Assembly (NCBI GenBank): GCA_965205865.1
Contig: CBDBHR010000028.1
Span: forward strand, 544,001 to 608,000
From: a bacterium
GTDB lineage: Bacteria; SAR324; NAC60-12
Reading direction: 5' to 3'
Length of the DNA stretch: 64,000 nucleotides
The notes under the pieces are model-generated. The model saw nothing but the letters and a program-made list of their open reading frames with translations, was not told the DNA's origin and did no database searches. Shown one piece after another: positions 1 through 39,940 of the stretch. The number at the start of each line of letters is the position of its first letter. The first letter of the stretch is position 1. A program made the position numbers and the translations under genes.

Positions 1-737
1 ATAGTATAATCGCTCTGCAAGTATTTTACAAGCATTAAAGGCTATCTGTTCTCAGCTAACCGTTTTCACTTACAAAAAAACGGTATATCAATATGATTCA
101 AAAACTGATAGCTGACAGCAGACGGCTAAAAGCTATTTCGCTACAGCGACTATTTAAGGCAAATTTTCTCATATCTAGAAAAGTAAGTCAATATGTTTTT
201 TTTAAGAATATCCGGCACTTTTCAATTCTCAGTTGACAGTTTCTAAAAATCCTCTGGTGATGATATGATGTTTTACATGACTTTCGGCTAAATAAGTAGC
301 GAAATTGAAATAAAACTTTCAGCAAAAGGCGATTTCTTGGAAACTATCACAAAAGAAAACGAAAGACCAGCAGAAATTCTTTAACCCTCTTTGAGGCCTC
401 AGAGGGGGTGAAGGCCTCTTTTGATCGTTGGCCCTCTTGTGAAAAACAAGAGGCCCTGAGGAAGGCCACGACTTGTTTGCCTTCCCCCTCACAAGCCTGA
501 ACTTTGCGATTGGCACCGCAGAACAACTCGACAGAATAGACAAATTTTCTAAAAATCAACGATTCTCTCCAAAAAGGAATCCCCTCACCATATTGAGCTC
601 AGCGCCTTACCAAGGAAGAAAAAGCAGCGGATGAGGAAACCATTTCCAGCAGGGAAACCCTCTTTGCTTTCCTGGAGCACCCGAGGGAGGAGGTCAAATA
701 CTCCGTGAGGCGCCTTCATCCCTTGACCATTTTGAAA

Positions 738-990
738 GAGGTATTTTTTCTTACAATTGCTCCTCTCCCTTTCTCTTCCCCTTGCGAATCATTGTATGTT
801 GTTTCCTTTGAGGTCAATATGTTATCGTTTATTTTGATTCGACTGGTAACAACTTAAGAAAAAAGCGCCCACCAGGCAGTTCACTGGACGCCCACCCCTG
901 CGCTTTTCATGAAGTTTTGTGGCAGACTGTCAGTTCATCTCTATTCCAATGGTCATTATCGGGTGGGCGCAAGTGATCTTTGCGTTAGTC
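738..990 (+). repeat. ~253-bp non-coding leader + attC platform, copy 1 (copy 2 is 38254-38505 on -)
   Basis: Manual alignment to the reverse complement of 38254-38505: about 16 differences in the first 135 nt, roughly 80% identity across the attC part; homology starts abruptly at GAGGT. Confidence 0.9.
866..990 (+). other. attC-like integron recombination site (125 bp, R'' degenerate)
   Basis: CGCCCAC(R'')-CAGGC-AGTTCACTGG...GCCCACCC/GGGTGGGC stem...AAGTGATC-TTTGC-GTTAGTC(R'); the homologous copy at 38254-38377 has TGCCAAC/GTTGGGC cores. Confidence 0.75.
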
Positions 991-1020
991 TTTTGAAGAA
1001 GTTAAACTTAAGAAAACCCA

Positions 1021-1506
1021 ATGAGTAGTGAATTAAGAGAAATCACCGGATTTCGTGGTGAAAAGATCGTCGAGCTTTGTTTGACCGATTATCAAGCATT
1101 TTCACAACCTCTTTTTCGCCCTGGATTTCTCGGTGACAAGTGGCCGGCTATTGACTTATATGTTGAATTAACCGCTGTTCGTGGAAAACGTTTATACTTT
1201 TTTGGACAAGCGAAAGCGACAACCTCTCCGTTGACAGTGCGGTCAATAAATCTTAGTATCTCAACAAAGAAAAAGGACATTGATCATCTCCTACGGATTC
1301 CCGGACCGACGTACATTCTTGGAGTTCATGAACCCTCTAAAAGAGTATTTGTCCGATCTGTTCATACCGGTATTCCTGTTAAAGCCATTACTCGAATACC
1401 ATTAGCATATGAACTCACTGGTGCAAACCTCCAAAAATTGCATGAGGAGGTTCGTAATTATTGGTCAACAACTGACCATAAACCTACATCTTCTGTATTC
1501 GCATGA
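1021..1506 (+). CDS. putative PD-(D/E)XK-fold, DUF4365-like protein (161 aa)
   Basis: N-terminal G..GE helix and IDLYVEL...FFGQAKAT (D...QxK) motif; starts 30 nt after an attC R' site. Confidence 0.6.
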   Translation: MSSELREITGFRGEKIVELCLTDYQAFSQPLFRPGFLGDKWPAIDLYVELTAVRGKRLYFFGQAKATTSPLTVRSINLSISTKKKDIDHLLRIPGPTYILGVHEPSKRVFVRSVHTGIPVKAITRIPLAYELTGANLQKLHEEVRNYWSTTDHKPTSSVFA

Positions 1507-1925
1507 CAGCTAAACAATCCCAGGCATACATGATTGGGCGCAGGGCCGAGCTAATCGTAGAGTTGTTTCTTCAAGAGTTCAATCCGTCCTTCGTCGCTAA
1601 ACCAACAACTGACTTTGGTTACGATTTTTTTGTTGGCTTTCCAAACGCTGATGGTGGCATTAACAATTATGCTATTGAAGTCAAAGCGACTGAGCGGCAA
1701 GTTCCATCGCGTTTCCGCATGAAGACTTCCTTGTATGAGCGTTTGGCTTATTCAAATATTCCGGCATTATTGCTCGTTGTAGACGTGAAACAAAATCGGA
1801 TGTTTTATGCATGGCTCACTCCTGAGGCAACTCAGAGTCGTAACGAAGCTCAAACAGTTTCAATTCCCGTCACAGAAGTAGATGATGCGGCCAAGGAGAA
1901 ACTGCTCAATCAACTTACTAGCTAA
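1503..1925 (+). CDS. DUF4365-like PD-(D/E)XK nuclease-fold protein (140 aa)
   Basis: GRRAE, DFGYDF, YAIEVKAT and NIPALLLVVD motifs; ATGA overlap with the upstream gene; stop codon lies inside the attC R'' site. Confidence 0.7.
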   Translation: MTAKQSQAYMIGRRAELIVELFLQEFNPSFVAKPTTDFGYDFFVGFPNADGGINNYAIEVKATERQVPSRFRMKTSLYERLAYSNIPALLLVVDVKQNRMFYAWLTPEATQSRNEAQTVSIPVTEVDDAAKEKLLNQLTS

Positions 1926-2047
1926 TAAAGCGTTCCACCGGATTTCATGGGGCCGCGCTCCGATCGATACTTCACGCAAGTTTTAAAATTTGTTCCATCA
2001 GCCACGTTCATTGTAGCCCCATGAACCCGGTGAACTTGTCGTTCTGT
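1920..2047 (+). other. attC-like site (128 bp)
   Basis: AGCTAAT-AAAGC-GTTCCACCGG-ATTTCATGGGGC...GCCCCATGAA-CCCGGTGAAC-TTGTC-GTTCTGT: L''/L' pairing with an extra-helical base, and R boxes at canonical spacing. Confidence 0.8.
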
Positions 2048-2095
2048 CACTCTTCTCCATCGAACCCTCTATCCTGCTGTTGCATTCTATCCAGC

Positions 2096-2124
2096 TTGAC
2101 ATTCGGTCATTTTTGTCCGATTCT
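2096..2124 (+). promoter_or_regulatory. putative hicAB promoter with operator palindrome
   Basis: TTGACA at 2096-2101, weak -10 GATTCT at 17 bp, inverted repeat TCGGTCA-N4-TGTCCGA at 2103-2120. Confidence 0.5.
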
Positions 2125-2130
2125 ATTCAT

Positions 2131-2343
2131 ATGACTGGCAATGAATTTATTCGAAAACTTAAGAAGTTGGGACGCAAGAATGGCGTTGAAGTTCGCTTTG
2201 TCGCACAACGTGGTAAAGGAAGTCATGGGACGCTCTTTTATGGAGCAGCCTTTACAGTTGTAAGAAATCCAAAGGACGAACTCAAAAAAGGGACGTTGCA
2301 CGCCATGCTCGCTCAACTCAACCTAGAATTGGAAGATTTATAA
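2131..2343 (+). CDS. hicA: HicA-family toxin
   Basis: 70 aa, RGKGSHGTL motif, ELKKGTLHAMLAQL end; upstream of a hicB-like gene. Confidence 0.85.
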   Translation: MTGNEFIRKLKKLGRKNGVEVRFVAQRGKGSHGTLFYGAAFTVVRNPKDELKKGTLHAMLAQLNLELEDL

Positions 2344-2352
2344 GAGGTCGTT

Positions 2353-2874
2353 ATGCAGAGTTTTGTTTATCCAGTGAAACTTACAGCTGATAAAGAGGAT
2401 GGAGGGTTTGTTGTCACCTTTCGAGATTTGCCCGAAGCAATTAGCCAAGGAGAAAACATCAAAGATGCCTTATCTGAGGCAGTCGATTGTCTTGAAGAAG
2501 CGATCGCCAATCGGATCGTGATGGATTTGTCTATTCCAATCCCATCTAATTGTAAAAAAGGAGAATATTTGATGGGTGGTCTCCGCAAACTGCTTAGCAT
2601 AATAGGCTTCCTTTTGGAAGAAGATGGTAGTACCACAACTACCACTTCTCTCCAACAAGGAAGCCATGAATCCATTAAATACAGAGTTACGCTTATTTTG
2701 TCCATGTCCTCACTGTCCACATTATCAGCAACCAGAGAATCGGATTTGGAAGATGGGGACCTATCCGGTGCAATCCGAATCCGGACGACGCCAATTGTAT
2801 TGGTGTTCAAGGCCAACACAAATTTTTGGAAACGCATTTCAGTGAAGAGAATTTTAAGAGAGCCGCCTGGATAA
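2353..2874 (+). pseudogene. hicB: HicB-family antitoxin; first ~73 aa are HicB, C-terminus replaced by IS-derived read-through
   Basis: YPVKL..DKEDGGFVVTFRDLPEAISQGE...IPIPS motif; similarity ends near 2573. Confidence 0.8.
2575..2867 (+). mobile_element. internally deleted IS1-like remnant (Zn-finger N-terminus)
   Basis: ORF 2624-2845 FCPCPHCPHY...KMGTY...RRQLYWC resembles IS1-family N-terminal zinc fingers; weak terminal IR GGTGGTCTC / GAGAGCCGCC. Confidence 0.5.
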
Positions 2875-2911
2875 GGGGGTGTATCCCTAATCGTAATTCT
2901 GCCGACTCCCC

Positions 2912-3697
2912 CTATTTTCTGTATAGTTCCCGTTTTTTTTCATTACTGCTGCCATACCACTTTGCTTCCCAAGAGTCTTCCCTCCAAACATTTTCAAAGG
3001 GGTAAACATCAAAGACGGGAGTGTAGGCACGCGGATGTTGGGTGACAGCAAGTAAAATCACTGCTGCGATATCTTCAGGCTGCATAAGTTTTTCACGATA
3101 GACATCATGATTATCATGCTGCATCTTTGTATCGACGTTTCCTGGACGAATGAGTATCGCCCTCACCCCATGGGGATGCCCCTCTTCTTGTGTAATCCCC
3201 GTGAGACCTCCTAACCCCCACTTGGCTGAGGCATAGGCCGCCATCTTGTAAGGGTAGTACTTTCCTGCAAGAGAAGAGACATTGACGATGTGCCCACTTC
3301 CTTGCTGACACATATGACTGAACACTGCTTGAGTACAAAGAAAAACAGCTTTGAGGTTGACGTTGATTTGAATGTCCCAGTCCTCCTCACTGATATCAGG
3401 AATAGCTTTATGATCAGCAAATCCGGCATTATTCACCAGGATATCGACCTTGCCAAAACGGTCTGAGGTTTGTTGGACCATGGCATCCACATCCGCCTTC
3501 TTAGCAACGTCTGTTGCCACCGCAAGCACTTCCCTGCTTATACTGCGAATTTCCTCAGCAACGACTTCGATCTCAGAGACAGTGCGCGCTGCCAGAACCA
3601 AGTGAGCGCCTTCCTGAGCCAAGGCCAGTGCCGTGGCTCTGCCAATGCCCCTACCGGCGCCTGTGACGATAGCCACTTTTCCTTCCAGTTTCATCAT
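2912..3697 (-). CDS. SDR-family oxidoreductase
   Basis: TGAGRGIG, NNAG and YASAK motifs. Confidence 0.9.
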   Translation of the reverse strand: MMKLEGKVAIVTGAGRGIGRATALALAQEGAHLVLAARTVSEIEVVAEEIRSISREVLAVATDVAKKADVDAMVQQTSDRFGKVDILVNNAGFADHKAIPDISEEDWDIQINVNLKAVFLCTQAVFSHMCQQGSGHIVNVSSLAGKYYPYKMAAYASAKWGLGGLTGITQEEGHPHGVRAILIRPGNVDTKMQHDNHDVYREKLMQPEDIAAVILLAVTQHPRAYTPVFDVYPFENVWREDSWEAKWYGSSNEKKRELYRK

Positions 3698-3973
3698 AAT
3701 TTTTCCTTAAAGATTGATAATTAGTATCTTGTGATTTTCTCCATATTTCGAATTTTATCGGACTTTCAGCCTCCTAACGGGTAGAATTCTTTTAGAACAA
3801 GAAAGCACCTTTGAGGGTGTTTTTGAAGAATTCATCCATCAAGAAGTAGCCTCATGATAGAATCAAATTATGAAGAAGTCCACTCTCAGGAGTGAATTAA
3901 GAGAAATATTTCAGATTCGACATGAGCCAAAAAAAACAAAAAAAGGGCTCGGCTTGGCAGGTTTGTCAGTCAA

Positions 3974-5952
3974 TCAGTACCAGTGGTAGTCGGAATCTTC
4001 GGGGTATTTGGTTTGGTTCCAGAATTCGAGCAAGGTGAAGGGCCAATTCTGGCTCACCCGGCCTTTGACGCTTTTGTACCAGCTATTGACATGGGGGGCG
4101 CCCCAGGGGCGATTGAGATTCCCTTCATCGATCCATTGGTTGTAGGAGTCATGGACTGCCGATTTGCAATCGAGGGCCGCCTGACCGGATCTGAGCAGTT
4201 GTTCAAAACATCCCAGGATGTAGCGCATTTCGCATTCGGAAAAGAATATGATACTGCCGTTGGCCACAATATTCGTATTGGGGCCATACATGCAAAACAG
4301 ATTGGGAAATTGGGGAATGGTGATGCCCAAGTAAGCCCGTGGATCGCCGTCCCAGTGTTCTTGCAGGTCGACCCCACCCCGCCCTTTGATGGTCATCGGC
4401 CAGAGCATGCGACTGGGATAAAATCCGCAGGCATAGAGGATCACGTCCACCTCATAATTTTTATTGGTTTTGCTCCTCAGCCCCGTCTCCGTGATGGCAT
4501 CAATCGGATCGGTGATGAGATGAACATTCTCGCGTTTCAGGGCCCGGAGCCAATGCCCGTTGTCGAGCAGCATCCGCTTACCTGCCGGGGGATAGGGCGG
4601 GATACATTTTTCTAATAATTCCTTATCGTCTCCAACAATTTTAGTGATGCCTTCGGTGAACAACTCCCGAATCTCTTCATTGAGCGCACTGATGGAGCGG
4701 GTTTGGTACGGCCAGGCTTCGTCTTTTTGCACGTATTTGAGGATCCCTTCGGCATTTTGCCAGAATAAGAACAACCGGAACCATTTGGCATAATAGGGCA
4801 AATGGTGGTTCAGCCAATGCCCCTCCTCCGAGTAATCGTCATGGTATTCAGGAATGTGTATGATCCAATTCGGCGTGCGTTGAAACACATAAACTTTCTC
4901 AGCTTGTTGGGCGATCTCCGGAACAGACTGAAAGGCACTGGCGCCTGTGCCCACGACGGCAATCCGCTTACCGGTCAAATCATGCTCGTGCTGCCAGCGG
5001 GCGGTATGAAAGGCAATCCCTTTAAACGACTTCCGTCCTTCAATTTCAGGGAGTTTGGGACGATTGAGTTGACCGACCGCACTGATGATGGCGTTGGCCT
5101 GCAGGGTTTCTCGCGCACCATCCTGCCCTTCAATCCGGACGGTCCAGGTGTTTGTGATTTCATCGTATTCGGCGGATTCCACCGAGGTTTTGAAGCGGAT
5201 ATTCGGCCGGATGCCAAATTCATCGGCACAGCGGGTGAAGTACTCCCGCAGTACCGGTTGCGTCGAAAAAATCTTAGGCCAGTCCTGAGGTTTGAAGGAG
5301 TAGGAATATGTATGGTTGGGATTGTCCACCCGGCACCCCGGATAAGTATTCTCATACCAGGTGCCTCCCACATTCGCGTTTTTCTCAATGACGGTATAGG
5401 CAATGCCGGTTTCCTCGAGCCGGAAAGCGGCCAAGATCCCGGACATCCCGGAACCGATGATGATGACGTGAAACGCGGCTCGTTTCTCAGGCGGGATCTC
5501 TTGTAACCCCGGTTGTTCAAACGGGTCTCTTCCGTCTAAAAGCAATTCAGCCATCAAGAATTTCCCATAATCCGCAGGCAGGGGTTCCCATTTTAATAGA
5601 TCGACCATGAAATCCATCATTTCCCGCACCTGCTCCACATTGGAAGGGGGAGCCAACGGGCAGCCCATTGGAAGGGGGAGCCAACGGGCAGCTCATCCCT
5701 GTCGCGATAATTCTTGAGGATCTCCAAGGCTTGTGCCCGCACCTGCGCTTGTTGCTCTTCACTGACGCCAAACGTACGATCAAACGGTGTGCGGGATTTC
5801 GGGCGAATCTCCCCCCGGATGAGGGACATGTCTCCTGTCACCATGGCCAGCGAGACTATCAACACTGGGATATTGGCTTTCTCCAAAACCGCTTTGAGGG
5901 TTTCATCGTCTTCGCTGATCGGCTCCCAGCTATCAAATTGCGTTTTACTCAT
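3974..5952 (-). pseudogene. Baeyer-Villiger monooxygenase (4-hydroxyacetophenone monooxygenase-like), frameshifted at ~5638-5696
   Basis: GSGMSG, GGTWYENTYPG, FKGIAFHTARW (BVMO fingerprint), GTGASA; the N-terminal part from 5952 is in a different frame; duplicated 27-mer at the junction. Confidence 0.85.
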
Positions 5953-6915: not shown

Positions 6916-7361
6916 CGACCTCTTTGCTGACGCCCTCACTGCCTCCTTCCTCAACTCCGCCCCCGATCTGCGCTGGCTGTCCGACGCCTGATCCGGATGA
7001 TGATCAGAGAGGCTGACATCCTCTGAACGCTTACCTTGCTTCACTCCTGTTTTAGTTAGTGCTTGGCTGAAAATCAGGTAACTACAAGATATTTAAAGGT
7101 ATTCACCTATTTTCAAGAAACGAGGATTTTGAGGAAACTCATCAAAAATCCCATTTTTTGCTGATTTTGGCCATCTGAACACTGTATCAAACAAATCTTC
7201 AGATTTTCAAGATGATTTTTTTGCCTGAGAAAGGCAATCATTCTGAAATCAGATTTTGATCATCAAATCCATGGATGTTTGAGTGAGAATGAGCATCAAA
7301 ATGCTGTTTTCAGATGTGGAAAATCTTCATTTCTCATGTCTTGGACGCACTCATCCCCTTA

Positions 7362-7936: not shown

Positions 7937-9001
7937 TCAATGACAGGTCATGCGAGAATGAGAAAAAACCGTAAAATGTTTAATCCGAATGGTGACGCGC
8001 TGATCACGCTGCCAATTTTCTCGGGAGGAGACACGGGCTTTGATCTGATTTCCTGTCAGGAGTTGGATTTTCAGTATTTGTTGATCCCCTGAAAAATCAA
8101 TGTGTTGAATTATTCCGTGATCTTTTTTATAGTCGGCGCCTTCAACCAGAATATCTTCAGGACGAACCATCAAGTGTTGTGATTTTTTTTGCAGAGTCGA
8201 ATTGCCGTTGAGATCGACAACATCATGCTTTTGCGAAAAGGGATCCAAATAACTTGAAGCCGTTTCAAAGGGTAAGAAGTTGGCTTCTCCCACAAAAGTG
8301 GCCACCCAGGAATCTATGGGGGCATGATAAATCCCTGTGGGTGTTCCTTCTTGAATGATATTTCCTTGTTTCATGATCACCATTCGATCTGCAAAAGTAA
8401 ATGCTTCAGATTGGTCATGGGTCACCAAAATAACGCTGACTTCTTTCTGACGCAAAATATCGCGAATATCTTGCCGTAACTGAACTCGGAGTTGATAATC
8501 CAAACTACTAAAAGGTTCGTCCAGTAAAATCAATGCGGGCGAAGGAGCGAGGGAACGTGCGACAGCAACCCGTTGTTGTTGCCCGCCAGAGAGCATGTGT
8601 GGCATTTTGTCCGCACAATCTGCCAAACTGACCAGTGCCAGCATTTCTTTCACTCGTCGTCGCTTTTCTTTATTGCTGCCTTTTAACCCGAAAGCAATGT
8701 TTTCGCTGACATTCAAATGAGGGAACAAAGAAATATCCTGAAAGACCATCCCCAAGCCGCGTTGTTCAGGAACAACCAACCTCTCCCGTTCAGAAACGAC
8801 TTGATTTTGCAGCAATACTTTTCCGCGGTCCAGTGTTTCCAAGCCGGCAATCATACGTAAAATAGTCGATTTGCCACAACCGGAAGGTCCCAGAATCGCC
8901 AGAAATTCTCTGCGATAGAGTTGGAAACTTACATTGCTTACTGCTTTGAGGGGGCCAAAGTTTTTGCTGACGGATTGACATTCCAGAATAAGTGTTTTCA
9001 A
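7937..9001 (-). CDS. fbpC: Fe3+ ABC transporter ATP-binding protein
   Basis: GPSGCGKST, LSGGQQQR, LLDEPF; operon context. Confidence 0.88.
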   Translation of the reverse strand: MKTLILECQSVSKNFGPLKAVSNVSFQLYRREFLAILGPSGCGKSTILRMIAGLETLDRGKVLLQNQVVSERERLVVPEQRGLGMVFQDISLFPHLNVSENIAFGLKGSNKEKRRRVKEMLALVSLADCADKMPHMLSGGQQQRVAVARSLAPSPALILLDEPFSSLDYQLRVQLRQDIRDILRQKEVSVILVTHDQSEAFTFADRMVIMKQGNIIQEGTPTGIYHAPIDSWVATFVGEANFLPFETASSYLDPFSQKHDVVDLNGNSTLQKKSQHLMVRPEDILVEGADYKKDHGIIQHIDFSGDQQILKIQLLTGNQIKARVSSRENWQRDQRVTIRIKHFTVFSHSRMTCH

Positions 9002-9065: not shown

Positions 9066-10775
9066 TCAATCTTCAACGGCTTTCCATTTTTCGATCCACA
9101 AGAGAGCATTGGAGGTCTCGGAAGAACTTTGCTCTGCGTGAGACTTTGTAATACCCCGACTCAAAATGATAACCGGTAGAATACCGACCATGACAATCGT
9201 TACTGACCATAAAGAGGATTCGTGCAAACGTTCATCGGAAGCATATTCATAGATACGAGTTGCGAGCGTACTGAAGTTGAAAGGTTGCAGCATCAAGGTC
9301 AACGGCAGTTCCTTCATCACATCGACAAAGACTAAAATCGCCGCAGTGAGCGCACTTCCCTGCAAAAGAGGAAAATGAACCCGTCTCAGGGTGGCAAATG
9401 TTCCCTGCCCAAGGGTTTTTGAAACCTCTTCGAGATTTTTGGTGATTTTTGTCAATCCTGCTTCGAGGGTTCCGAAGGATAATGCCAGAAAACGAACAAG
9501 ATAAGCAAAGACGACAGCGACAATCGTACCACTGAGAATTAGTCCGGTCGAAACGTCAAAGAAGTCTCGCATAAAGCGATCAACTGCGTTATCCAACCCG
9601 GCAAAAGGAAGCAGCACGCCAAGCGCAATAATAGGACCAGGCACTGCATAACCCAATGTGGCGATACGGGTGGTTATCCGCACCAATTTTGTGGGGCGGA
9701 GCCTTACTCCGTAAGCTGTCAACAATGCCAATAAAACAGATAATACTGCCGCAATACCGGCAAGCATGACACTATTGGACGCATCACTGATAAATCGATG
9801 AGTGAGGGTTTGTTCATAGGTTTCGAAAACCCACTTGAGCAGAAGTAAAAACGGGATCAAAAATCCAAATAAAATAGGTAAAAAACAACAGAGAAATGCC
9901 ATCAACGCATGTCCACCGGAAAGCCGAGGTTTCTTTTTATCCATCCTGTTTTGTTTATTGTGATGATAGCGTTTCCGGCGTCGTGACAGTCGTTCCAGAA
10001 ATACTAAAATCGCCACAAAAACCAACAATGTAGTAGCCAATTGCGCTGCGCCAGGTGCGTTGTACATTCCCAACCAGACGCTATATATGCCTGTTGTAAA
10101 AGTACTGACAGCAAAGATTTGCACCGTTCCAAAATCACCTATGGTTTCCATCAATGCCAGAATTAAACCCACTACAATCGCTGGTCTTGATAAAGGCAGG
10201 GCAACTTGCCAAAAATTCTTCCAGGCTCCCTTTCCCAAAAGTTGTCCCACTTCCATGACATTCATGGAAAGATCCAAAAAGGAAGCCCTGGCAAGTAAAT
10301 AGACATAAGGATACAAAACCAGGACCAACATCGCTATCGCTCCCTCCAGTGAAACGATATGAGGGAACCAATAATCCTTGGCGCTTTGCCAGCCAAATAA
10401 AAGTCTTAGAAAGGATTGGACGGGACCGGCAAACTCGAGGATTTGAACATAAACCGTGGCAATGACATAGGCTGGCATGGCGAGAGGCAAAAACAGAGCC
10501 CATTCAAAGACCCGCTGCCCTGGAAAACGATACATGGTTACCAACCATGCAGTGCTGATTCCAATCACTAAAACGCCCGCCCCGACGCCGAGCATCAACA
10601 AAAATGTGTTGCGCGCATATCGGGGAAGGACGGTTGTTGATAGATGAGACCAAACTTCATCGCTTGGTGTGAAAGCCAGTCCGATTACCGCAAAAATGGG
10701 AATTGAAAAAATCAATGCCAGTAAAACAGTAAAAACGGACCAGCTATCCACGCTTTTTTTTATAGTTGAGTTCAC
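9066..10775 (-). CDS. fbpB: Fe3+ ABC transporter permease
   Basis: Duplicated permease domains; LPLAMPAYV, DFG and KELPLTL motifs. Confidence 0.9.
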   Translation of the reverse strand: MNSTIKKSVDSWSVFTVLLALIFSIPIFAVIGLAFTPSDEVWSHLSTTVLPRYARNTFLLMLGVGAGVLVIGISTAWLVTMYRFPGQRVFEWALFLPLAMPAYVIATVYVQILEFAGPVQSFLRLLFGWQSAKDYWFPHIVSLEGAIAMLVLVLYPYVYLLARASFLDLSMNVMEVGQLLGKGAWKNFWQVALPLSRPAIVVGLILALMETIGDFGTVQIFAVSTFTTGIYSVWLGMYNAPGAAQLATTLLVFVAILVFLERLSRRRKRYHHNKQNRMDKKKPRLSGGHALMAFLCCFLPILFGFLIPFLLLLKWVFETYEQTLTHRFISDASNSVMLAGIAAVLSVLLALLTAYGVRLRPTKLVRITTRIATLGYAVPGPIIALGVLLPFAGLDNAVDRFMRDFFDVSTGLILSGTIVAVVFAYLVRFLALSFGTLEAGLTKITKNLEEVSKTLGQGTFATLRRVHFPLLQGSALTAAILVFVDVMKELPLTLMLQPFNFSTLATRIYEYASDERLHESSLWSVTIVMVGILPVIILSRGITKSHAEQSSSETSNALLWIEKWKAVED

Positions 10776-36433: not shown

Positions 36434-37399
36434 ATGGCTGTTGCAGTGAAGACGCTGGCACCTGAAACGCAATCTGCTAAGAAAATGGCATGGTTTATTT
36501 TCTTCCGCAGGTTGTTCAGAGAGAAGCCGCTAGGGGCTTTTGGCCTGGTCATTGTCCTGCTCTTCTTCTTCATCGGCATCTTCGCTGATTTTCTCACACC
36601 GCATGATTACCTGCAGCATAAACTGCCCAAACGGTTGAAGGGGCCTTCTGCCGAATATTTCTTGGGGAACGACCACTTCGGGCGCGATGTGCTCAGCCGT
36701 CTGATTGTGGGGGCGCGTATTTCCATGGTCGTCGGGGTGGGAGCAAGTTTCCTCACGGTGCTGGTGGCGACGGTTTTCGGGCTCATCTCCGGGTATTGGG
36801 GGGGTAAGTTTGACCTCATCCTGCAGCGCTTTGTCGATGCGGTGATGTGCTTCCCGTGGTTGTTCATCGTCCTGACCGTCATGGGCATCGTCGGGCCGGG
36901 GATTGCGCAGGTCACCATCGTTTTGGGAGTTCCCTGGGGCATCAACAACATCCGCACAATCCGCAGCGTGGTCTTGAGCGTCAAGCAGAACGCCTATGTC
37001 GAAGCGGCCATCGCCACCGGATGCAGCACCCCGAGAATCCTGATCCAACACATCCTGCCCCAGATCGTGGCCCCTGTGATCATTCTCTTTACCATTACCA
37101 TGGGAGGCGCCATCCTCGGAGAAGGCGTTGTCAGCTTTTTGGGATTTGGTATCCCTCCCCCCGAACCCAGTTGGGGCGGCATGCTCAGCTTGGAAGGTCA
37201 AAAGTATTTGGAACGGGCCCCGATGCTCGCGCTATGGCCGGGACTCTGCCTGGCCATCGTCGTCTTTGGGATCAATATGTTTGGCGATGCCATGCGGGAC
37301 CTGCTCGATCCCAAGCTGAAACTCGGCATGGGCCGCTTTCACTCTATCAAGAAGAAAAATCCGGATAGCTCCATTCGTGGGCCACGACCGCGCAGGTAG
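36434..37399 (+). CDS. peptide ABC transporter permease (DppC/OppC-like)
   Basis: LGNDHFGRDVLSRL, YVEAA, SFLGFG..P.PSWG, GDAMRDLLDP. Confidence 0.93.
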   Translation: MAVAVKTLAPETQSAKKMAWFIFFRRLFREKPLGAFGLVIVLLFFFIGIFADFLTPHDYLQHKLPKRLKGPSAEYFLGNDHFGRDVLSRLIVGARISMVVGVGASFLTVLVATVFGLISGYWGGKFDLILQRFVDAVMCFPWLFIVLTVMGIVGPGIAQVTIVLGVPWGINNIRTIRSVVLSVKQNAYVEAAIATGCSTPRILIQHILPQIVAPVIILFTITMGGAILGEGVVSFLGFGIPPPEPSWGGMLSLEGQKYLERAPMLALWPGLCLAIVVFGINMFGDAMRDLLDPKLKLGMGRFHSIKKKNPDSSIRGPRPRR

Positions 37400-37550
37400 A
37401 CTAGTTCCAGTCCGGAATGAGAACGGACAAACGCTTCAACTCGGCGACGACCACCTGCGCTTGGGAGATAGGGGTGTCGCCGACCTGAAGTATCTGCACT
37501 CGACCTCGGGAGACCGGGTACTTCTCAGCCCAAGCACCGCCGGGCAGGGC
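37362..37550 (-). pseudogene. internal fragment resembling large RecQ/UvrD-fusion helicases
   Basis: ALPGGAWAEKYPVSRGRVQIL...AELKRL...DWN*STCAVVAHEW; family recalled from memory. Confidence 0.45.
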
Positions 37551-37586
37551 AAATTTTTGAGGATCATTTGAGTAAACTACTGAGAG

Positions 37587-37707
37587 TGAAAGCCAGGGCG
37601 ATACTCACGGAAGCGCTGGAATTGGAGTCCTCAGTATGAGCATTGATCAATTTTATTTGAATCTCAAAACGGCGCATTTAAGCACCGGGTTTATCGCTTT
37701 GTTGGGC
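37587..37707 (-). other. degenerate attC-like site (~121 bp)
   Basis: On -: GCCCAAC-AAA-GCGATAAACCCGG...CCGTGAGTATCGC, with R' eroded (GCTTTCA); R'' is the exact complement of the cassette's leading GTTGGGC. Confidence 0.65.
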
Positions 37708-38001
37708 TTGCCGTTGTCTCAGCCATTTCTGTAGTGAAGATTGATTTTCATTTGATGCTCTCCCTGCCAACAATCCTGCAATACTAATATCTTCATCGAT
37801 ATCTTCCCAATGAATACCTTCCCCTTTTCCAATCATCCTCCAATGTTGACGTTCTTCCTCAGTAGAGTGAAAAAGACGGGGGAACCAGGCTAAGGGGACA
37901 CTGATACTTCTCCCATCACTTAAATCAACATTGAGTTCATCCGATGTTACCTTCACCTCTTCAGCATAAGGGATTTCCATTTTAATGATCAAAGTACTCA
38001 T
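37678..38001 (-). CDS. DUF2442-family protein (TA partner)
   Basis: LSDGRSISVPLAWFPRL..S..EE...W...G.GIHWEDIDEDISIAGLL. Confidence 0.9.
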   Translation of the reverse strand: MSTLIIKMEIPYAEEVKVTSDELNVDLSDGRSISVPLAWFPRLFHSTEEERQHWRMIGKGEGIHWEDIDEDISIAGLLAGRASNENQSSLQKWLRQRQAQQSDKPGA

Positions 38002-38218
38002 GCCATCTCTCCAATATTTCTATTTGATGCTCTCTAACGATTTTCTGGATACGGAATATTTCTCTCCGATTAAAACCGCCACTGTTTTGTAATCTTACTG
38101 GTTCAAGCCAAAATTTAGCAGTTTTATCATCTCGTTCAACATGTATATGAAGAGGTTCGACCTCGTCTCCGGAATAAAAGAAAAATCGATAAGGACCAAT
38201 TCTTAAAACTGTAGGCAT
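37982..38218 (-). CDS. DUF4160-family protein (TA partner)
   Basis: MPTVLRIGPYRFFFYS...EPLHIHVE...AKFWL...W.EYF. Confidence 0.9.
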   Translation of the reverse strand: MPTVLRIGPYRFFFYSGDEVEPLHIHVERDDKTAKFWLEPVRLQNSGGFNRREIFRIQKIVREHQIEILERWHEYFDH

Positions 38219-38253
38219 ATGATTTTTTTCGGATATTTTGTTGCTTTTCGCAG

Positions 38254-38377
38254 GCCCAACGTTAAGGTCACTTTTGCCCACCCGATAGTGACCAGTGTCC
38301 TAAAGATGAACTGACAGTCTAGAACAAAATTTGGTGAAAAGCGCAAGGGGGGCGTCCAGTGAACCGCCTAGTTGGCA
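38254..38377 (-). other. attC-like site (124 bp)
   Basis: On -: TGCCAAC-TAGGC-GGTTCACTGG...AAGTGACC-TTAAC-GTTGGGC. Confidence 0.8.
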
Positions 38378-38505
38378 CTTTTTTCTTGAGTGGTTATCAG
38401 TCGAATCCCAATAAACGATAACACATTGACCGCAAAGCAAACAATATAAAATGATTGGCAATGGGGAGAGAAAGGGAGAGGAGCAATTGGAAGAAAAAAT
38501 ACCTC
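38254..38505 (-). repeat. ~252-bp leader + attC platform, copy 2
   Basis: Homologous to 738-990. Confidence 0.9.
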
Positions 38506-38729
38506 AATGGAAAAACACGCTGGAGACGTTGGATTCAGGGGAATCTGAGAAAAGACATTTGATCGAGTTGCTCGCAATGACTAATCCTGCTTCTCAAATT
38601 AAACGGGACCACTGCCCTAAAAACCCCCCCCCAAAAAAAAAAACAAAAAAATAATCCAAAGTGCATTTTTAGCTTGATTTCATGATAATTCATACTTTGT
38701 GCCATAGGATTGCTGGAGAAAGAGATATA

Positions 38730-38871
38730 CTGTGAACGGATGTTTTCTTCATTTTTTGTCATCCTGAGGGAACCGAAAGATCTTCTTGATTCCCATGAGA
38801 TTCTTGCTTAGGCAGCCCCCTTAGCTCAGAATGACAGGTCTTTGAAAAGTGAAATTTAAACCCGTTCAGAG
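38730..38871. mobile_element. 142-bp TA-flanked MITE with REP-like core
   Basis: TA-CTGTGAACGGAT...ACCCGTTCAGAG-TA; GTCATCCTGAG...CTCAGAATGAC at 38758-38835. Confidence 0.7.
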
Positions 38872-38995
38872 TATAATGTGAAGAATCTCGATGATCTCTC
38901 CCAGCAGTCGAGAAAACACATAAAGGTATACAACCTGCTGAAGCAATTACATCGTGATGAGCGAGAAATCATCACGCCACGCATGTACAAGGCGT

Positions 38996-39940
38996 TTAAT
39001 CGAAGGCGGCAACGATTTCCTGCTCGATGCGCTGAATTTCCTCGACTCCGCCGGTGGGGATATTCCCGAACATGATCTCGTCAACTCCCTCGTCGATCAG
39101 CTTTCCGATCCGATCCACCACCTGCTGGCGCGTACCGACCATCGTCCCTTCGCCGAGGCCCTTGGTAAGACGTTCACCTGCTTCTCTTGCCGCCTGATCA
39201 TCGCCGACCACTATCGGTATGAGGATTGTACGCCTGATCTCGGCCGGGTCACGCCCGACGTCCTCACAGTGACGTTTCAGCACCTCCACCTTGTGCCGAT
39301 AGATCTCAAGCGAAACCCCTTGTCCTGCCCAACCGTCCAAATTGAGCACGTCACCATACTTGGCAAGTGTGCGCAGCGTGCGTCGCTCGCCGGTGCCGCC
39401 TACCAGAATCGGAATGTGTGGCTGCTGATGACTGCCAGGGGAAAGCTGCAACTGATCCGCTCTGTAGTAGCGACCACGGAAATCGATCGGACCTTCCGTG
39501 GTGAACAGCGTGCGGATCAGCTTACATGCCTCCTCGAATCGATCCGAGCGTTCACGCATGGTGGGAAACGTCCAGCCGAAGGCATAATGCTCTCGCTCGC
39601 ACCATCCGGCGCCCAGCGACAGCGTGAACCGGCCTTTGGATGCCTGATCGAGCGAGGTGGCCATCTTCGCCAGCAGTGCCGGATTGCGGTAGGTGTTGCC
39701 CAACACCAAATGCCCCAGCCTCAGCTTGCTGGTCATTCCGGCCGCCACCGCAATGAGGGTGTAGCCTTCGAATGCGGGCAGGTGCTCGGTCTTCCGACTT
39801 CCCTTCGGCCCGCCCCATGGTGGTAAAAAGTGGTCTGCGAACCAGAGGCTGTGCCAAGGACCCGCCTCCATAGTTTCAACCGATCGCGCGATATCGTCCC
39901 ACTTGGTGTTGTAACAGTTAACTTGAATCCCGAATTTCAT
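38996..39940 (-). CDS. LLM-class (putative F420-dependent) oxidoreductase
   Basis: MKFGIQ, W.ADHF, YRNPALLAKMATSLD..SKGR, GAGW.ERE. Confidence 0.9.
   Translation of the reverse strand: MKFGIQVNCYNTKWDDIARSVETMEAGPWHSLWFADHFLPPWGGPKGSRKTEHLPAFEGYTLIAVAAGMTSKLRLGHLVLGNTYRNPALLAKMATSLDQASKGRFTLSLGAGWCEREHYAFGWTFPTMRERSDRFEEACKLIRTLFTTEGPIDFRGRYYRADQLQLSPGSHQQPHIPILVGGTGERRTLRTLAKYGDVLNLDGWAGQGVSLEIYRHKVEVLKRHCEDVGRDPAEIRRTILIPIVVGDDQAAREAGERLTKGLGEGTMVGTRQQVVDRIGKLIDEGVDEIMFGNIPTGGVEEIQRIEQEIVAAFD

Follow-up and report, generated by a model that had tools for sequence, protein, structure and literature searches.

An attC joined to the upstream region of a DUF2887 gene at the head of integrase-less cassette clusters in a SAR324 genome

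A sequence of about 250 bp occurs twice in the 64,000-nucleotide stretch of a SAR324 genome analysed here (the window), and each copy is directly followed by small genes. The question raised by this locus is what kind of element stands ahead of two distant gene clusters, and how it came to be in both places. The first-pass annotation had described the repeat as a leader joined to an attC site and had taken it for a promoter-bearing landing pad, a promoter cassette or the eroded front of a non-canonical integron, seeding small arrays around the genome. The reading favoured here, with a probability of about 75%, is that the repeat is the head of integrase-less integron cassette clusters, consisting of an attC (attC_X) and the upstream region or stub of a DUF2887 gene, and that it has been copied by duplication or gene conversion.

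The repeat and its attC

The two window copies, A (738-990, plus strand) and B (38254-38505, minus strand), align end to end without large gaps, with 85.1% identity across 249 bp (BLASTN, E 3.5e-68), which confirms the homology reported in the first pass. The homology starts at 738 in copy A and 38505 in copy B and ends just after ...CGTT, at 990 and 38254, respectively. The BLASTN comparison with the whole genome that had been recommended there does yield further copies, so that the repeat occupies not two but 13 places: seven near full-length, five with attC only (whole or partial) and one with leader only, on contig C1. Copies are also carried by a genome of the same genus (G001) and by genome G023. 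A multiple alignment of the 13 places, with 738-990 as the query, separates the repeat into three modules (Table 1). The 3' limit of homology falls just after ...CGTT in every copy reaching R', with one reading ...CTTT; the sequence beyond varies, and the genes there differ from locus to locus. Three places have, in front of attC_X, the 3' end of a forward PDDEXK_2 (PF12784) gene in place of the leader.

Table 1. Features of the repeat, of its two window copies and of the associated loci (window coordinates unless a locus or the query is named)
Feature	Position	Strand	Evidence or remark
Module 1	query 1-31		common only to copies A, B, C30:706k and C1
Module 2 (leader)	query 34-~125		8 places
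Module 3 (attC_X)	query ~127-253		hairpin-bearing
Copy A DUF2887 remnant	738-769	-	~31 bp of internal coding sequence; alignment to intact L028 gene
Copy A leader, DUF2887 promoter/5'UTR region	770-865		contiguous with DUF2887 start in intact copies
attC_X, copy A	866-990	+	R1 18.2 bits; alignment 1-125; E 0.08 (window), 0.0051 (4 kb, filters off)
DUF4365 gene 1	1021-1506	+	PF14280, E 3e-4, below cut-off
DUF4365 gene 2	1503-1925	+	PF14280, E 2.7e-9; overlaps gene 1
Second attC of array A	1920-2047	+	R1 39.1 bits, E 2.1e-6; single-strand fold z -2.6
HicA	2080-2343	+	PF07927 (HicAB toxin-antitoxin pair)
HicB	2353-2874	+	PF15919 (HicAB toxin-antitoxin pair)
DUF2442	37998-37675	-	PF10387; after attC_X copy B
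DUF4160	38218-37979	-	PF13711; after attC_X copy B
attC_X, copy B	38254-38377	-	R1 25.1 bits, E 0.0024 (window), 1.1e-4 (3 kb, filters off)
Copy B leader, DUF2887 upstream region	38378-38474		alignments
Copy B DUF2887 remnant	38475-38654	+	translation and deletion junction
Intact DUF2887	L028:5030-5926	-	114 bits (cut-off 24.1 bits), whole 200-position model
Intact DUF2887	L030:5018-5926	-	114 bits (cut-off 24.1 bits), whole 200-position model

Altered forms of the repeat were also observed. On contig C1 (L035, 5418-5610), the leader and the R''/spacer part of attC_X are joined to a different attC body of 65 nt, scoring 24.7 bits, a hybrid that is unexplained by an integrase crossover at R'. 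At C30:988806-988884 (L036), only the last 79 nt of a decayed attC_X are left, directly next to a 588-bp repeat sharing 98% identity with positions 8029-8616 of locus L034. At C24:44509-44592 (L037), a C-terminal fragment of DUF2887 is fused straight to the second half of a decayed attC_X.

The assignment of the 3' part to attC is based on sites with a known integrase partner. Reference attCs were 12 sites from arrays adjoining an intI over the TIGR02249 cut-off in four genomes (G004, G005, G008 and G016), which were chosen by their R''-spacer-L''...L'-spacer-R' layout and then aligned. Their L box consists of 3 bp, one unpaired base and 6 bp, and 7 of the 9 pairs covary (RNAalifold). The 12 sites served to build a covariance model (R1), to which the present genome contributed no sequence; R1 is a home-made model, and its E-values are rough. 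R1 gives exactly three matches in the window, all of them full-length alignments, namely the two attC_X copies and a further site downstream of copy A (Table 1). Scores for the other attC_X copies range from 21 to 48.5 bits. Across the genome, at least 23 matches have E<=1 among the 150 of 1111 candidates that were scored, and these include four same-strand sites clustered at C30:921743-930476.

The core sites of attCs follow the consensus RYYYAAC for R'' and GTTRRRY for R'. Copy B reads TGCCAAC and GTTGGGC, with AAC and GTT intact, while copy A is degraded, with ...CCCAC replacing ...CCAAC in R'' and with GTTAGTC as R'. Consequently, the attC of copy A would not pass alone (18.2 bits, E 0.08, CAC in R''). 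In an alignment of 16 sites of this genome, the AAC/GTT pairs are kept in 13-15 of the 15 rows with letters there. In the same alignment, which was fitted to R1 and thereby favours high L-box pairing, 89% of L-box cells are paired, compared with 19-39% in a slid-partner control, and 7 of the 9 pairs show compensatory changes on both sides. L'' of attC_X has 3 bp followed by an unpaired base at the fourth position, as in the intI-linked sites, and a variable-loop motif (CTTTT.CA.AA..TTT; ...GCGCTTTTCA.CAA.TTTTG...) is common to attC_X and the long attCs of G005, G008 and G016. The attC claim of the first pass is upheld by the matches to a model from intI-linked sites of relatives and by the covarying L box. 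Judged by these sequence features, the 3' ~125 bp of the repeat is a genuine integron attC, and its recombination by an integrase is putative. It belongs to the long attC type that integrons of this bacterial family use. The bottom strand of attC_X is predicted to fold into a hairpin with R box, L box and an extrahelical base, which an integron integrase would cut at G|TT; bottom-strand cutting there would explain why different small genes follow every copy from exactly that point.

That the repeat is no attC and instead some unrelated structured element, such as a REP/MITE element or a terminator, is scarcely credible. This alternative could draw on a terminator-like hairpin called at 966-986 and on the single-strand folds of copies A and B, whose stability does not exceed that of shuffles (z -0.34 to +0.82), a comparison that is uninformative. 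However, such an element would have neither full-length matches to an intI-linked attC model nor compensatory pairs in the L box, its homology would not be expected to break at G|TT, and it would not share its variable-loop motif with the long attCs of relatives; moreover, no terminal inverted repeat or target duplication is present. A scan of the genome for attCs by pattern and folding energy gave no excess over a reversed-sequence control (1782 vs 2754 raw candidates, with similar energy tails). As the scan could not tell true sites from background, the attC call depends on the covariance model. Rfam matches in the window at the gathering threshold are limited to a tRNA, and at E<=1 positions 1-1100 give one chance 16-bit match only.

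A separate structure was observed in a true integron array of a relative (L073 of G005), where a near-perfect hairpin of 166 nt occurs three times, at 5097-5262, 7088-7253 and 9561-9726. The three copies are 95-97% identical, fold alike on both strands at -50 to -58 kcal/mol, and all start at an attC's GTTGATC end. The hairpin may represent an element that targets attC sites.

Cassette clusters without an integrase

In array A, the pair of DUF4365 genes (1021-1925) forms cassette 1, bounded by two attCs, and is followed by the HicAB genes. No attC was found after HicAB, where the best R1 match with filters off reaches 5 bits (2844-2924). Array B has no second or terminal attC (R1 with filters off, no other match above 6 bits in 36500-39500), and its DUF4160/DUF2442 pair is therefore a putative cassette only. 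The two-gene cassette that had been claimed behind each copy is therefore retained in part: two small genes follow each copy and the pair in array A is bounded by attCs, while array B has a single attC. In none of the eight leader-bearing loci of the genome does R1 with filters off detect an attC left of the unit; in three it detects a second, same-strand attC downstream. In all eight, attC_X comes first among the attCs of the local array, so the description of the unit as the head of cassette clusters stands.

No intI over the 265-bit TIGR02249 cut-off was found anywhere in the assembly, which is 91.9% complete and comprises 30 contigs, and the best match (43 bits, contig C4) lies outside the window. 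This agrees with the absence of an integrase noted in the first pass, and it extends that absence to the whole assembly; an intI could lie in the missing part of the genome. Intact intI genes over the cut-off are present in 6 of the 41 genomes searched, all in the same family. G001 contains a fragment of intI that includes a stop codon (122 bits), beside small minus-strand genes and an attC. The matching locus of the present genome has no intI fragment, and the neighbouring gene of the PALP family (pyridoxal-phosphate enzyme) is intact. Past action of an integrase would best explain why the genes right of G|TT vary, a suggestion supported by the fragment in G001.

These arrays can be placed among known types. 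A CALIN consists of at least two clustered attCs without intI, and genomes without a recognisable intI are common (Cury et al. 2016, PMC4889954), whereas a SALIN is a single attC without integrase (Loot et al. preprint, 10.1101/2022.09.11.507474). The idea of an attC that further cassettes can join is likewise known from CALINs and SALINs (PMC4889954; 10.1101/2022.09.11.507474). Since no intI adjoins the array, it is not a complete integron. The two attCs of array A are on the same strand, 930 bp apart and with no intI nearby, so array A (866-2047) is a CALIN; array B, with its single attC, is a SALIN. The arrays resemble CALINs and SALINs in being small, in carrying cassettes of unknown or toxin-antitoxin function and in having no recognisable intI.

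The Vibrio cholerae repeats are a homogeneous attC family of a sedentary chromosomal integron and form one long array beside intI. The present genome is similar in having many copies of one long attC (~120-130 nt) with 80-96% identity to one another. Unlike the Vibrio cholerae repeats, the copies are scattered as single sites or pairs over at least seven contigs, and there is no long array beside intI.

The leader and its divergent gene

The origin of the leader is apparent from two loci in which the neighbouring gene is complete. In L028 and L030, an intact DUF2887 (PF11103) gene encoding 298-302 aa lies directly to the left of the leader on the opposite strand. DUF2887 is a predicted PD-(D/E)XK nuclease family (PMC3045609, PMC3424549). 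The divergent genes here are like other members in matching the whole model and differ in that both intact copies adjoin an attC. The genome has four DUF2887 matches in total, one being a fragment in L031 (30.8 bits to PF11103), and both intact genes are at repeat units. The same arrangement of DUF2887 and leader occurs in G001, where the protein is 82% identical. Among the 40 other genomes searched, 38 have no DNA match to the leader, and relatives with intact integrons show none. Judged by titles and abstracts, the literature yielded no paper linking DUF2887 to integrons and none on such SAR324 integron clusters. The 5' half of the repeat is the upstream region of this divergent nuclease gene and would hold its promoter and 5'UTR.

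In copies A and B only stubs of the gene are present, which were identified by alignment to the intact gene alone. The remnant in copy B translates as ...LEEKIPQWKNTLETLDSGESEKRHLIELL, matching ...ELEEKIPQWKDTLETLDSSEFEKRHLIELL, residues ~165-195 of the intact protein, and after LEEKIPQWKNTLETLDSGESEKRHLIELL an unrelated tail continues into a poly-G/poly-T tract. Copies A and B share one deletion of ~560 bp with an identical junction, which removes approximately the N-terminal 165 codons together with the proximal 5'UTR; the short stub in both is what this single event left behind. A different and shorter DUF2887 deletion is found at C23_129k (L031), and C30_645k has the same upstream sequence as C23_129k. 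As a separate observation, a T11 G9 tract (38625-38665, minus strand) directly follows the DUF2887 remnant of copy B and is common to three copies.

Several claims about the leader change with this assignment. A divergent ribosome binding site and TTG had been read as the start of a gene; they sit at the deletion junction, and TAA directly follows the TTG of copy A (757-755, minus strand). Because the translation of copy B matches the interior of DUF2887, the TTG is an internal leucine codon, at about residue 167, and query 1-31 is leftover coding sequence. The view of the leader as non-coding agrees with 770-865, which has no coding signal and no Rfam match. The idea of an eroded intI/attI front is contradicted by the copies in L028 and L030, in which the divergent gene is intact and is DUF2887, not IntI. 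More generally, a promoter, ribosome binding site and start codon beside a repeat can be a deletion scar in an old gene, which calls for caution.

The promoter motifs listed in the first pass are all present where they had been placed. TGTTATCGT is found at 820-828 (plus strand) in copy A. On the minus strand, TTGACC (817-812) is followed after 15 nt by TACAAT (796-791; TAAAAT in copy B), with the purine-rich GGGAGAGGAG and then the TTG downstream. A consensus scan detects a minus-strand promoter-like site in the leader and no plus-strand promoter in 738-990. In the intact copies, TTGACC-15 nt-TA(C/A)AAT precedes the start of DUF2887, and it is therefore a reasonable candidate for the promoter of that gene. 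The conservation of TGTTATCGT is no better than that of its surroundings. In the contigs of four metatranscriptome runs for positions 1-4000, cover over 805-1072 is low in run X17 and absent from the remaining three; such contigs show neither starts nor strands and may include DNA carry-over, so they are uninformative on leader promoters.

In the landing-pad reading, leader and attC would act as an analogue of Pc/attI, capturing and expressing cassettes with an integrase supplied in trans. This explanation is unlikely, though it has several points in its favour. attC_X is the first attC at all eight leader loci, the TGTTATCGT segment (827-838) is the best-conserved stretch of the leader (0.97), and CALIN cassettes may be mobilised in trans (PMC4889954). 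In addition, only 30 nt separate the attC from the first gene of array A (990 to 1021), and array A therefore needs a promoter in or upstream of that site. On the other hand, the consensus scan provides no plus-strand promoter for this role, and in three copies (C30_706k, 664k and 714k), including both with intact DUF2887, TGTTATCGT is replaced by TGTGATCGT, a weaker -10. The assembly contains no integrase, a second attC is present at only three of the eight leader loci, and the adjacency of DUF2887 explains the conservation of the leader without any cassette-facing role.

The autonomous promoter cassette can be assessed in the same way. Gene-less promoter cassettes have been described from Vibrionaceae superintegrons (10.1101/2023.11.21.568050). 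The repeat is like these in having a non-coding stretch ahead of an attC that would possibly drive downstream genes, although promoter activity is putative here. A gene-less cassette has an attC on both sides, whereas here the stretch is the DUF2887 upstream region and there is no left attC in 8/8 loci; the repeat is thus not a gene-less promoter cassette, and this part of the first-pass interpretation does not hold.

Another element of the window, at ~214-420, is ~170-220 bp long and has 64 BLAST matches in the genome and at least 25 places in G001, with 80-93% identity. It lies upstream of genes for solute-binding proteins (SBP), has a TTGACA...TGATGATAT promoter-like motif and has no Rfam match. 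In contigs of the four metatranscriptome runs its cover is by far the deepest of positions 1-4000, a depth that sums all copies. Candidate identities are a promoter/5'UTR module, a small RNA and a MITE.

Genomic setting and spread of the copies

At most loci, the unit has a divergent family-5 SBP gene on its left and a converging OppC-type permease gene on its right. Such genes belong to a large expansion of Dpp/Opp-type ABC importers, with ~148 SBP_bac_5, 135 permB and 137 permC paralogue loci (tblastn). The unit sits in the gaps between paralogous ABC transporter operons. Within 5 kb of an ABC paralogue lie 25 of the 30 listed attC sites, which are not independent of one another, compared with 40% of the genome.

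The comparison of loci provides a picture of exchange between them. Between L028 and L030, identity is ~100% over a tract that begins ~230 bp within the SBP gene, spans DUF2887 and reaches the leader; it is only 60-80% in the remainder of the SBP gene, and the two loci diverge within the attC. The copy at C30_714k is a mosaic, its leader being 98% like that of 664k and its attC 96% like that of 706k. In G023, the attC is 95% like copy A and the leader only 84%. The same deletion alleles of DUF2887 recur at several loci. Because deletion alleles are shared and copies are mosaic, duplication or gene conversion is favoured over the 'seeding' that had been proposed. The copies would have spread in this way among paralogous ABC loci, and not by repeated precise insertion of a cassette.

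Cassette insertion was nevertheless considered in a specific form. DUF2887 in reverse orientation, its own promoter and attC_X could together be a mobile cassette, inserted by an integrase at attG-type sites beside ABC operons and founding arrays there. In its favour, every unit ends on the right at the attC R', experiments have demonstrated that cassettes can insert into genomic attG sites (10.1101/2022.09.11.507474), and the enrichment of attC sites near ABC paralogues given above would agree. Such a cassette should have an attC or at least a common boundary on its left, but neither is found to the left of DUF2887, and the high identity extends far past the gene into the SBP coding region. 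The recurrence of deletion alleles, the differing histories of leader and attC, and the DUF2887 loci outside the genus (one locus from a SAR324 MAG, three from other phyla), where no attC lies within 4 kb in 4/4 cases, also speak against it. A mobile DUF2887 cassette is thus quite unlikely.

It would be very surprising if the copies were independent of integrases altogether, with the flanking PD-(D/E)XK 'putative transposase' genes (DUF2887, PDDEXK_2) using the hairpin as their own recombination site. The leader copies of attC_X are flanked by DUF2887 and the attC-only copies are preceded by PDDEXK_2, and the genome has no intI, as this proposal would predict. However, only 4 of the 16 PDDEXK_2 genes of the genome are followed by any attC. 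Beside further PD-(D/E)XK genes, R1 finds an attC at 1 of 14 loci (13 PDDEXK_2 and one DUF2887 fragment), and beside distant DUF2887 genes at 0 of 7, including the G001 copy with a truncated attC. DUF2887 relatives elsewhere are thus without attCs, deleted DUF2887 alleles are still copied between loci, and attC_X matches a model from intI-linked sites. From the distribution of these sequences, the association of attC_X with PD-(D/E)XK genes is local to this genus. A broader proposal is that the unit of DUF2887, promoter and attC_X is a dispersed working capture site, similar to attI/Pc and served in trans either by an absent or occasional integrase or by the flanking nucleases. This is decidedly improbable; if it were true, the genome would have many mini-integrons at ABC-transporter loci instead of one large array.

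The favoured reading, an array head copied by duplication and gene conversion, leaves the clusters as a known kind of orphan cassette cluster and not a new gene-capture platform, the sole unusual feature being that one array head is multiplied within the genome. As origins of CALINs and SALINs, the available text of the two papers discusses loss of intI, rearrangement and insertion at secondary sites, and not copying of array heads (PMC4889954; 10.1101/2022.09.11.507474). In contrast to the clusters treated there, a single attC with the remnant of a neighbouring gene heads at least eight clusters in one genome here and bears marks of gene conversion. The present case adds a clear example of integrase-less cassette clusters in an uncultured, probably sponge-associated bacterium. 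It also suggests one route by which orphan attC clusters may multiply, namely that homologous recombination between paralogous loci copies an array head.

Comparison of this genome with G001 and G023 shows no synteny for either array. The flanks of array B (37361-38998) are 91-92% identical to G001 sequences that lie there ~2 Mb apart (at 2.69 Mb and 0.63 Mb), and array B is therefore at a rearrangement breakpoint; this separation also speaks for a spread of the copies by recombination. Finally, a (GGGAACT)n tandem repeat is present upstream of the SBP gene in L028 (~4170-4250) and in L030, and its copy number differs between these ~100% identical tracts.
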